Source: Vicinamibacterales bacterium
GTDB taxonomy: Bacteria > Acidobacteriota > Vicinamibacteria > Vicinamibacterales > UBA8438
Length of the DNA stretch: 64,000 nucleotides
Assembly: GCA_965221595.1 (NCBI GenBank)
Contig: OZ244900.1
Span: forward strand, 2,342,687-2,406,686
Direction of reading: 5' to 3'
The notes under the pieces were generated by a model. The model did not search any database, had not been told where the DNA came from, and worked only from the letters and a program-made list of their open reading frames with translations. Within the stretch, counting starts at the first letter, position 1. Every line of letters starts with the position of its first letter. Shown here piece after piece: positions 45,355-48,300 of the stretch. The translations under genes were made by a program, and so were the position numbers.

Positions 45355-48300
45355 ATGGCACGCGACGACAGCGTCCTGCCGGCCGGCCATCGGTTCTCGC
45401 ACTACCGCGTTCAGCGGGTCCTTGGACGCGGCGGCTTCGGCGTCACCTACCTCGCGATCGACGAGCGCGGGGGCCGGCAGGTGGCGGTCAAGGAGTTCTT
45501 TCCCGGCGAGTGCGCCGTACGCCGGGACGGGCAGGTGCTCGCGCGGCCCGGTGCCGAGCACGAGAATGCCTTCCGGTGGGGACTGAAGCGTTTTCGCGAC
45601 GAAGGACGCGTCCTGGCTCGCTTCGATCACCCGCACCTCGTGCGGGTGATCGGTGATTTCGAAGCGCACGGCACCGGCTACATCGTGATGGCCTACGTCG
45701 AGGGCAAGACGCTGTCGACGCGACTGGCCCGCGAGGGAACGCTGGACGAAGCGCGGTCGCTCGCCCTCGTCCTGCCCATCGTGGACGGGTTGGAGCAGGT
45801 GCACGCGGCTGACTACCTGCACCGCGACATCAAGCCGGGCAACATCGTGATCGGTGCGGACGGATCGCCGGTGCTGCTCGACTTCGGCGCGGCACGGCGG
45901 GCGCTCGGCGACCGCACGCGCAGTCTCACCGCGATCGTGTCAGACGGCTACGCGCCGATTGAACAGTACGCCCGCGACTCGCGGCAGGGGCCCTGGACCG
46001 ACATCTATGCGCTGGGCGCCGTGCTGTACCGCTGCCTGACCGGTCAGCCGGTACCCGAGGCGCCCGCGCGCGCCACCGCGGACGAACTCGTGCCGTTGGG
46101 GGAGGCAGCGCCCGCGCCGCCGAGCCAGGCCATCCAGGAGGCCGTGCATGCGGCGCTGGCCGTCAACGGCCGCGACCGCCCGCAGTCCCTGGCCGAGTGG
46201 CGGGAGATGTTGTCGGCGTCGCCGGCCGCGCCGGCGAAAGACAACGTCGCGGAGCGTAACGTGGCGGAGCGGGACGCCGGCGGGGCGGCGGCGGACGACG
46301 TGGCGGAGCACGACATCGGCGGAGCGACGGCGCGCGACGTGGTGGAGCGGGACACCGGCGGAGCGACGGCCGGCCCGGCGCCGGAGGCTCGGCGCGAGTA
46401 CGCGGACGATCTCGCGGGGCAGCGGCAACGACTCGTCGACTGGGTGCGACACCAACTCGTCGGCCCCACCGACCCCGACGAGATCCACGGTTCGCCCGTC
46501 GAGCGCTTTCCGATCGGCGTGCTGCACCCCATCAATCCGGACGGCTCGGGCGCGACCGGCGTCGACCCTGCCGAGCCGGAAGTGAACCCCGACAGCCGGG
46601 GTTCCGGAGCCGCGGCGTCGTCGCCGGACGGCGCCGACCTGACAGCCCCGCCGGCCGACGACGAGGACGACGAATCGCACGACGGCGACGAAGGTGGATC
46701 GCGCAGTGAGGTGGCGCGGCCGGTAGGTCGCCGCCGCTACGCGCCACCGTCCTCGGTTGGAGTGTCCTTCTATGTGCGCGGTGAAGCCCAGTTGCGTATC
46801 AGCGCGTCGGCCGCGAGCTATCGACGGGTGACCAACCGAGGCGAATCGGGCCGTTACCAGCGTCAGACGCCGGACAGCGATGCAGTCGGCGCCGGACGAA
46901 CCCCCGACAGCGCTGGCCGCCGTCGGGATGAGCGCGGCGCGGGCACCGCGCCGACCTCTTTCGACGCGGAGGCACGAGCACCCGAGGACGCCGCCCCGGG
47001 CGGCGGCGCGCGCTACCAGCGGACGGCCATCGAATGCGGTCTGCTCTGGCCCTCGGGAGAGGGCGAGACGCCGACCGGCGTCGAGCGGGACGTGCGGCGC
47101 CGGCCGTACCGGGGCGGTGACGCGCTGACCGCCGCCTTCTCGCAGGCGGAGGCGGTCGGGTGGAAGACGCAGCTCGACGTGCGGCGCCGCCCCTACGGAG
47201 ACGGGCACATCCTGACCGTGGTCTTCGCCAACCGGCAGCGCGAAGCGCCCCCCGGCACGGAACGCGCCCACCGCCGCCTGTTCGAGGTCCAACTGGAGTG
47301 CGAGGTCGAGGCCGGGGAGCTAACCGAGTACCCGCGGGTGGACCCCGCCTTGCTCACCGATGAGGAACAAGAGATCGAGCTGCAGCACCGCCACCGACCC
47401 ATCTACGCTATCGGCCACGGCGTGGCCGCGGAGTGGTCGATCGCGGGGCGCCGGCGGCCGCGCATCTGGACCGACTGCATGCCCACGGTCGAAGTGCCGG
47501 TGGTGACCCAGGAAATCCCGGACCTCGACCCGGACCTGCTGGTCCTGCTCGACCTCGCCGAGGCGCCGGCCGGGACGGTCCTCGCCCGCCTGGAAACTTT
47601 CGTGAACCGCTACGGCGAATGGGTGGACGGGCAGCGCGCGTCGGCGGAGAGCTTCGTCGGCGGCGAAGGCGAGGCGGCGCGACGAATCTGCGCACGGATG
47701 GACGCGGCAAGCGAACGGATGCGGGGAGGCGTGGCCCGCTTGCGTCGCAGCGACGAGGCCCTGGAGGCGTTCCGGCTGGCGAACCGCGCGATGTTCGACC
47801 AGATGTGCCAGGACCGCGTGCAGAAGAAGCTGGATTCCTCCTCTGACGAAGGCTTCGACCACCAAGTGAACCGCGTGCGCGAGGAGCGCGATGTCCGCCG
47901 GTATCGTTGGCGTCCGTTCCAGTTGGCGTTCCTGCTGGCCGTCATCGAATCGACGATCGACGAGGCGGATCCTTGCCGGGGCGTGCTCGACCTGATCTGG
48001 TTTCCCGCCGGCGGCGGCAAGACCGAGGCCTATCTCGGGCTGTTCGCCTTCCTCGCGATGTGGCGGCGGCTGCGATACGGCGAGGACGGCGGGGGCGTCG
48101 CGGTGCTCATGCGCTATACGCTGCGGCTGCTCACGCGGCAACAGTTCGAACGGGCGGCGCGCATCGTCTGCGCGCTCGAGTTGCTGCGGCGGCGGGACGA
48201 AGCGAGACTCGGCGTCGAGCCGGTCTCGGTCGGGCTCTGGGTGGGCGGCGCGGCCAGCCCCAACACCCATGAGGAGGCGGCGGCGAAGGTGGCGGACATG

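Follow-up and report, generated by a model that had tools for sequence, protein, structure and literature searches.

A Hanks-type Ser/Thr kinase fused to a DrmA-type helicase in a DISARM-related cassette of Vicinamibacterales

Results

The kinase domain

We examined a 64,000-nucleotide stretch (hereafter "the window") of contig OZ244900.1 from a Vicinamibacterales bacterium, a soil acidobacterium, and found that an uninterrupted open reading frame (ORF) of 1536 amino acids (aa), at 45355..49965 on the + strand, encodes a Hanks-type Ser/Thr kinase, a linker and a DrmA-type helicase in one polypeptide. This kinase-DrmA protein, the first gene of a four-gene cassette, is an unmistakable fusion that is conserved and yet dynamic in its evolution, but it is not a new principle. 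An initial annotation, made from the sequence alone, had proposed that the kinase and helicase form a single polypeptide and that the kinase is probably active; the single polypeptide is borne out by the comparison with homologues, as the same architecture is found in at least 19 independent contigs, and the conservation of the catalytic residues agrees with a probably active kinase. The window has a GC content of ~70%, and the GC content at third codon positions (GC3) of the kinase-DrmA ORF is 0.87, the value expected for a real gene. The parts of the protein are:

45355..49965, + strand: kinase-linker-DrmA ORF (1536 aa; GC3 0.87; 19 full-length homologues)
45403..46224, + strand: Hanks-type Ser/Thr kinase domain, PpkA-like, aa 17-290 (Pfam, PDB, AlphaFold2, Foldseek and substitution rates)
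45424..45441, + strand: glycine-rich loop GRGGFG, aa 24-29 (invariant in the homologue alignment)
45490..45492, + strand: catalytic Lys K46 of VAVK (invariant, as is its partner E83 at 45601-45603)
45820..45843, + strand: RD-type catalytic loop HRDIKPGN, aa 156-163 (H156, R157, D158, K160, P161 and N163 invariant)
45880..45963, + strand: DFG (aa 176-178), activation loop and P+1 segment GYAPIE, to aa 203 (invariant residues)
46225..46419, + strand: Ala/Gly/Asp low-complexity linker, aa 291-355 (variable, with a tandem repeat; ratio of non-synonymous to synonymous substitution rates (dN/dS) 0.75)
46420..47754, + strand: DrmA N-terminal region, aa 356-800 (start of NCBIfam DISARM_DrmAS; conserved in kinase-less relatives)
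47755..49962, + strand: DrmA superfamily 2 (SF2) helicase core, aa 801-1536 (PADLOC, PDB 7s9v_A, invariant motifs)

The Pfam model Pkinase (PF00069) matched aa 17-235 with E = 3.3e-31 and 109.1 bits, against a gathering cut-off of 31.7. The catalytic elements listed in the initial annotation were all there, each at the position given: the glycine-rich loop G24-R-G-G-F-G29, V43-A-V-K46, the helix-C residue E83 within RFRDEGRVL, H156-RDIKPGN163, D176-F-G178 (DFG at 45880-45888) and G198-YAPIEQ204. D216 of subdomain IX and R275 of subdomain XI are likewise present. The catalytic residues (glycine-rich loop, K46, E83, HRD, N163, DFG, P201/E203, D216 and R275) were invariant in 19 of 19 full-length homologues, which come from separate contigs and share 62-80% identity, and T188, S190 and T192 of the activation loop were invariant across the same proteins. 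Among four orthologues, the pairwise dN/dS of the kinase was 0.28, near that of the helicase core (0.24), while the DrmA N-terminal region gave 0.34 and the linker 0.75; identity to orthologues was 72-81% for the kinase versus 70-72% for the helicase.

The domain at aa 17-290 is a full RD-type Hanks Ser/Thr kinase, similar in kind to PpkA and PknB, and purifying selection acts on it wherever it occurs. Because every catalytic element is present and invariant under purifying selection, the domain is unlikely to be a pseudokinase. The initial annotation had placed its end (46200, aa 282) slightly too early, as the domain extends to around aa 290 (nt 46224).

The closest solved structure was the kinase domain of PpkA, a Thr kinase of type VI secretion (5hnv; phmmer against the PDB, 1e-63 over aa 6-287, 40% identity), followed by mycobacterial PknE, PknB and PknA. 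An AlphaFold2 model of aa 1-300, a prediction which the initial annotation had suggested as a check, had a predicted local distance difference test score (pLDDT) of 89.8 and a predicted template modelling score (pTM) of 0.88, and its only low-confidence stretch was the activation loop (aa 182-193). Both the model and its Foldseek matches have the bilobal kinase fold, with PpkA as the top match (template modelling (TM) score 0.84/0.89, root-mean-square deviation 2.3 Å) and PknB next (TM ~0.7-0.8). Like PpkA, the window kinase has an insert between beta-3 and helix C and a P+1 motif of the form GYAPIEQY. Unlike PpkA, it is found without a vWA or periplasmic sensor domain, type VI secretion genes or an Fha partner, and its catalytic loop is the canonical HRDIKPGN where PpkA has HRDISLDN.

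PADLOC models of kinase type matched at aa 10-300, including PD-T4-6 (1.5e-51) and mad6 of MADS (1.3e-46). Most of the nearest free kinases have their kinase domain at the N-terminus and an FGE-sulfatase, PG-binding, TPR or LRR domain at the C-terminus.

The linker and the DrmA part

The linker (aa 291-355, 65 aa) is of low complexity and varies among homologues in both length and sequence. Within it, Tandem Repeats Finder identified a 39-nt repeat present in 2.9 copies at 46259-46370 (+), which encodes a 13-aa unit (DVAERD.GGA...); this repeat was absent from all aligned homologues and is private to the window.

The identification of the helicase as DrmA-type, which had also been made in the initial annotation, was upheld by a PADLOC DrmA match of 8.1e-196 over the C-terminal two-thirds of kinase-DrmA, by an alignment to PDB 7s9v_A of 9.3e-132 which begins at chain residue 316 of 7s9v, and by a DrmB gene immediately next to it. 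Pfam Helicase_C was found near the C-terminus, and the motif I GGGKT (48010-48024) and the DELH motif (48613-48624) were both invariant among the 19 homologues. The match to NCBIfam DISARM_DrmAS, a model for DrmA proteins of the short type, starts from aa 357, so that the kinase and the 65-aa linker are placed before a complete DrmA. Since the score against this equivalog model was 850.7 bits, under its cut-off of 950, the window DrmA is best described, at the level of its sequence, as a divergent DrmA subfamily.

The N-terminal region of DrmA (aa 356-800) is conserved in kinase-less relatives. It contains an acidic and probably disordered loop at aa ~392-460 (nt 46528-46734), with ~75 aa, ~16 Asp/Glu and ~9 Ser/Thr. 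The number of Ser/Thr residues in this loop is 3-6 in an old kinase-less subclade versus 6-12 in kinase-bearing forms, a difference that is confounded by phylogeny. Comparing the DrmA core between kinase-bearing and kinase-less forms, we found just four differing columns overall, all of them conservative. The same N-terminal region also contains an internal duplication (47084-47139 and 47171-47226, +), which gives two "DVRRRPY(R/G)-G-(D/H)-LT" motifs 29 aa apart, both of which are kept in homologues.

Distribution of the fusion among DrmA proteins

Clustering at 90% identity gave ~20 clusters in which kinase and helicase are one protein; these come from separate contigs, chromosomes of 4-8 Mb among them, and the in-frame arrangement was seen at the loci L001, L011, L012 and L015, all from metagenome-assembled genomes (MAGs) of Vicinamibacterales. 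The initial annotation had noted that separate genes in closely related genomes would speak against a true fusion, and we looked for such genes in related loci without finding any: a tblastn search of 36 loci for a separate kinase gene beside the cassette (E ≤ 1) returned nothing beyond the fused copies, a 13-codon scar in L031 and a Bradymonadales kinase that is unrelated. The idea that kinase-less cassettes carry the kinase as a separate neighbouring gene was rejected, as in relatives the kinase is either fused or absent. In the kinase-less L040, the upstream gene is unrelated and TPR-like.

There is therefore next to no probability that an error in assembly, reading frame or gene calling has joined a kinase gene to a separate DrmA gene. 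Frameshifted tails in related entries (P0022, P0036, P0037 and L015) do indicate that there are sequence errors in these MAG data, but the junction is in frame in at least 19 independent contigs, multi-Mb chromosomes among them, a kinase gene standing by itself next to DrmA is seen in no relative, and deletion derivatives keep the first 8-13 kinase codons in frame with the linker.

It should also be noted that frameshifts or out-of-frame tails in DrmA or in the fourth gene of the cassette occur in L015 (~12290), L040 (~13218), P0022, P0036 and P0037, and that these frameshifted relatives are either long-read assembly errors or pseudogenised cassettes.

To place the architecture among its relatives we used the best 150 representatives at 50% identity, ~125 of which are DrmA-type. 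Co-occurrence of Pkinase with DrmA in one ORF, a survey that the initial annotation had called for, was seen in three of these ~125 representative clusters: one is the kinase-DrmA fusion itself and two have a module of NERD and kinase domains. The earlier description of the fusion as unusual thus stands with respect to its rarity among DrmA-type proteins, but not more widely, as kinase-helicase fusions in defence have precedents in Mokosh MkoA and in PglW of BREX type 2. Some DrmA relatives of 1650-1940 aa end in a DUF1998/MZB domain; the two representatives longer than 1600 aa that were scanned, P0245 and P0248, have DUF1998/MZB at the C-terminus and are DrmA-DrmB fusions in a single polypeptide, as is MrfA.

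The four-gene cassette

The cassette (45355-54997, + strand) consists, in order, of kinase-DrmA, DrmB, a UvrD-like ATPase and a 581-aa protein. The three genes downstream of kinase-DrmA are:

49955..51817, + strand: DrmB (DUF1998/MZB), 620 aa (NCBIfam DrmB_fam, PDB 7s9v_B)
52078..53232, + strand: UvrD/HelD-like P-loop ATPase, conserved core 384 aa (Pfam UvrD_C_2, AAA_19)
53252..54997, + strand: 581-aa protein with no assigned family (431 homologues; predicted fold)

The start of DrmB, which was set by comparison with homologues, overlaps the stop of DrmA by 11 nt, and the protein matched NCBIfam DrmB_fam with 301 bits against a cut-off of 240 and PDB 7s9v_B with 6.9e-54. The third gene contains Pfam UvrD_C_2 and AAA_19, and PADLOC gave weak GajB/UvrD matches alone. 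Alignments of its homologues begin around the Met at 52078, in-frame starts at 51853 and 51955 are also possible, and its orthologues are 384-392 aa long.

The fourth gene had no match in Pfam, PADLOC, NCBIfam or the PDB sequences, and has 431 homologues. In its AlphaFold2 model (pLDDT 78.5, pTM 0.79) an N-terminal beta-rich domain resembles the DNA ADP-ribosyltransferase DarT (Foldseek E = 7e-5, probability 1.0, TMt 0.50) and a helical domain resembles the ADP-ribosyl-hydrolase ARH3 (Foldseek E = 7e-3); these are resemblances of predicted structure, with no support at sequence level for either. The protein has an invariant motif, L54-V-T-N-H58-L-N-L-x-Y63, which we take to resemble the NAD-binding motif of DarT. 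If this fold assignment is true, DrmAB would be the sensor of the cassette and the fourth gene would supply an ADP-ribosylating effector, a combination of greater novelty than the kinase.

We found the four genes in the same order at at least 28 loci from Acidobacteriota, Gammaproteobacteria and Alphaproteobacteria, Desulfobacterota and Verrucomicrobia (at least five phyla), with no further conserved gene around the cassette in 28 related loci. There was no phospholipase D (PLD) domain, as would mark DrmC, in the cassette or the scanned flanking genes, no match to DrmD (SNF2) or DrmE among the cassette genes, and no DNA methyltransferase (DrmMI/DrmMII) among the genes at 34.6-57.2 kb of the window, nor any methylase-like conserved neighbour within ±10 kb in related loci. 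No ORF clusters were common to the kinase-bearing loci, except for the local synteny of L001 and L015. Judging by its genes, the cassette is DISARM-related but not canonical DISARM, because it is without a methylase and a PLD nuclease, and it looks like an unnamed DISARM-related system. The authors of a 2025 survey of YprA-family helicases write of "many uncharacterized DISARM-like classes", and the word "kinase" occurs nowhere in it.

Gain, loss and replacement of the kinase

The kinase is limited to a Vicinamibacterales clade. The same cassette occurs without a kinase in Gammaproteobacteria, Alphaproteobacteria, Desulfobacterota and Verrucomicrobia, and there was no kinase gene within 10 kb of these outgroup cassettes. 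We built a neighbour-joining (NJ) tree of the DrmA core with 100 bootstraps. The basal split of the Vicinamibacterales clade has kinase-bearing proteins in both of its branches, and kinase-less proteins were nested among kinase-bearing forms: P0007 with P0004 (95%), L003 with P0016/P0019 (100%), P0034 with P0021 (96%) and P0025 with P0009/P0013 (100%). P0024/L031 and P0026 are further kinase-less forms nested in this way.

Several of the kinase-less proteins retain remnants of the kinase. P0024 starts with MARDDSLLPAGH, followed by RPDRD, which represents a jump to the linker; P0025 has MPGDDSVL and then AVWQ..LGRS, which is the last kinase helix; P0026 retains NRAVGHHDIALPDG; and P0023 has the C-lobe tail alone left of the kinase. 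At the DNA level, L039 (P0025) is short by exactly 816 nt compared with L001, and the deletion in L031 (P0024) has boundaries unlike those of L039. After these deletions all four genes are full-length and the rest of DrmA is intact. L040, a close relative of the window with 81-88% protein identity, is entirely without the kinase. The simplest reading would be a single gain of the kinase, ancestral in the Vicinamibacterales clade, followed by at least 5 independent losses through in-frame deletion.

At L034/P0032 the same position is filled by a NERD domain, an APH-like probable pseudokinase (HRN) and a second kinase-like domain which reads HGDVSPRN and DYD; this DrmA gene lies at 8111-14209 (+) of L034. 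The NERD-kinase architecture is also found in the more distant DrmAs P0241 (L037, 3592-9354) and P0243, and by profile comparison the N-terminus of the NERD module resembles the N-termini of Mokosh MkoA and BREX PglW.

Comparison with known defence systems

Amino acids 357-1536 and the product of the next gene are clear homologues of DrmA and DrmB of DISARM, of which the Serratia class 1 complex is the solved example (7S9V/7S9W; Ofir 2018, Bravo 2022). As in DISARM, the helicase and DUF1998 are split into two translationally coupled genes, and the DExH and Walker A motifs are intact. Of the components of DISARM, DrmA and an adjacent DrmB were found, and DrmC, a methyltransferase and DrmD/DrmE were not; unlike in DISARM, the partners in the cassette are the UvrD-like ATPase and the 581-aa protein, with no DrmC, DrmM, DrmD or DrmE. 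The two also differ at the N-terminus of DrmA: in the window it carries the kinase, and in class 1 it carries an EVE-like domain, after which comes a trigger loop that is unstructured and autoinhibitory.

Type I Mokosh MkoA contains a Ser/Thr kinase domain and an Upf1-like helicase (Millman et al. 2022), and is thus like kinase-DrmA in having a kinase N-terminal to a defence helicase in one polypeptide. The window kinase matched the PADLOC MkoA model PDLC03920 at model positions 16-275 (5.8e-25), and it is the kinase part alone which matches MkoA models. However, MkoA has an SF1 Upf1-like RNA helicase and is accompanied by the PLD nuclease MkoB, whereas the window has an SF2 helicase of YprA/DrmA type and DrmB. 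With a DrmA-type helicase and no PLD gene, the cassette is not type I Mokosh, and the kinase fusions of MkoA and of the window DrmA arose independently. PglW of BREX type 2 (Pgl) is likewise a large defence protein with a Ser/Thr kinase, in a system that discriminates self from non-self DNA, but the window protein scored 48.9 bits against the NCBIfam BREX_PglW cut-off of 990 and PglX, PglY and PglZ are absent.

Stk2, PD-T4-6 and Mad6 of MADS are Hanks kinases in anti-phage defence, and the window kinase gave strong PADLOC matches at the level of the domain. Each of them works alone or as part of another multi-gene system, none has a DrmA helicase fused to it, and the score against NCBIfam MADS6 was 127 bits against a cut-off of 460. 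In ARMADA and Druantia, YprA is a single gene with a fused DUF1998, a BrxA-like insert and a C-terminal nuclease, and the partners in ARMADA are BrxHII and PglX; in the window, helicase and DUF1998 are split, and a methylase and an SNF2 gene are absent.

We found no description of a kinase-DrmA fusion in the literature on DISARM, DrmA/DrmB or DUF1998 or in the 2025 YprA survey, and the literature on DrmA paired with an ADP-ribosyltransferase gave none either. The kinase itself is an ordinary member of the Hanks family, and kinase-DrmA resembles other kinase-NTPase defence fusions and belongs to none of them.

Surroundings of the cassette

The ATG of kinase-DrmA is preceded by a spacer of 124 nt, which itself lies 3' of the stop of a TonB-dependent-receptor-like outer-membrane gene (42132..45230). 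A scan of this intergenic region for promoters and terminators gave nothing meaningful. The spacer contains a perfect GC-rich inverted repeat of 13 bp (GGGAGTCCGCGCC ... GGCGCGGACTCCC) at 45240-45272, 83 nt 5' of the kinase start, which is without a T-run and was not called by the terminator scan.

Downstream, a tRNA-Leu gene (anticodon TAA; 55837-55925, -) lies 0.8 kb from the cassette with its 3' end towards it. We searched 41-56.5 kb for an att-like direct repeat and found none, and a genomic-island boundary was not established. Between the cassette and tRNA-Leu is a gene for a small CCDC90-like coiled-coil protein (55209-55730, -), which contains three tandem repeat units with 54-nt spacing at 55284-55487.

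Discussion

The kinase of kinase-DrmA is probably active, yet an accessory that the core machinery of the cassette can do without. The kinase as an output of helicase engagement is favoured over a helicase that depends on autophosphorylation, because the kinase has been lost cleanly and repeatedly while the cassette was retained. RD kinases require phosphorylation of the activation loop, and in PknB-type receptor kinases sensor-driven dimerisation triggers autophosphorylation of this loop. By its position, DrmA would take the place of the C-terminal sensor in the free-living relatives of the kinase. We therefore favour, with slightly less than even confidence, a mechanism in which the engagement of DrmA-DrmB with foreign DNA would bring kinase domains together and the clustered kinases would trans-autophosphorylate at T188/S190/T192 of the activation loop. 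The activated kinase may then phosphorylate host, phage or cassette proteins, and this output would give the DNA-targeting core a further arm, for signalling or growth arrest.

Several points weigh against this mechanism. The activity and substrates of the kinase and the role of the cassette in defence are predictions. We found no kinase-specific partner such as a phosphatase or FHA protein near the kinase-bearing loci, and the DrmA core has no Ser/Thr columns specific to kinase-bearing forms, so that no substrate is indicated there. The history of losses is read from a simple NJ tree in which some deep nodes have 30-52% support, and recombination between cassettes may have occurred. Repeated loss could also mean that the kinase is costly or conditionally useful.

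The kinase might instead be an internal regulator which phosphorylates DrmA (for example in the acidic loop at ~aa 392-460), DrmB or the downstream proteins and so sets the threshold for helicase activation, by keeping the helicase inactive or by releasing it for action. There is some reason to consider this: class 1 DrmA has an autoinhibitory trigger loop for which the acidic loop is a candidate counterpart, the kinase and its disordered linker precede this Ser/Thr-containing loop, and a covalent tether favours substrates in cis or within the complex. The lower number of loop Ser/Thr residues in the old kinase-less subclade (3-6 vs 6-12) points the same way, weakly and with phylogeny as a confounder. 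We nevertheless consider such a regulator, the main alternative, doubtful. All four genes stayed intact through at least 5 clean losses of the kinase, and the kinase-less cassettes of other phyla show that the helicase is independent of it; if the kinase were a negative regulator its loss should be toxic, and if it were a required activator its loss should be followed by decay of the other genes, and neither is seen. Kinase-specific conserved Ser/Thr are absent from the DrmA core, and the trigger loop cannot be mapped by sequence, as the 7s9v alignment starts only at chain residue 316.

The same evidence of dispensability, from the losses and the kinase-less cassettes, counts against an upstream sensor similar to Stk2, in which a phage protein or infection cue would act on the kinase and thereby switch on DrmAB, or in which the kinase would serve as a parallel second sensor. 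Stk2 is listed among kinase-based defences, and the staphylococcal enzyme is reportedly activated by a phage protein (Depardieu et al. 2016). The strong PADLOC scores of the window kinase against stand-alone defence kinases (PD-T4-6 1.5e-51, mad6 1.3e-46) fit such a role, but these matches reflect generic similarity of kinase domains, and the catalytic domain and a variable linker of 65 aa are all that precedes the start of DrmA, with no dedicated sensor domain. We regard an upstream sensor as unlikely. It is more improbable still, and very much so, that the kinase fold acts non-catalytically, as a scaffold, an ATP sensor or a decoy for phage factors which target host kinases. The first kinase-like domain of the NERD module reads HRN for HRD and is pseudokinase-like, which is not direct evidence for the window protein, and a non-catalytic role would not maintain invariant catalytic residues across 19 homologues of 62-80% identity.

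The clustering mechanism may be extended, more tentatively, to the cassette as a whole: it would be an unnamed, methylation-independent relative of DISARM with two unusual outputs of DrmAB, namely the tethered kinase, which would be activated by clustering on foreign DNA and phosphorylate host or phage proteins, and the DarT-like/ARH-like product of the fourth gene, and the repeated gain, swap and loss of the kinase would reflect an arms race over its output.

The kinase-DrmA clade bears on the route by which DrmAB leads from DNA sensing to protection, as a signalling enzyme is here attached directly to the helicase. Naturally occurring pairs of near-identical cassettes with and without the kinase, such as the window and L040 (81-88% protein identity), make the role of the kinase testable. 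After Mokosh MkoA and BREX PglW, this is the third independent case in which a protein kinase has been recruited to the N-terminus of a defence NTPase, which suggests that such recruitment is a general design principle. The finding also points to an uncharacterised four-gene DrmAB cassette which is spread over at least five phyla and, if the proposed mechanism is true, kinase-DrmA would be the first DISARM-type helicase which signals by protein phosphorylation.

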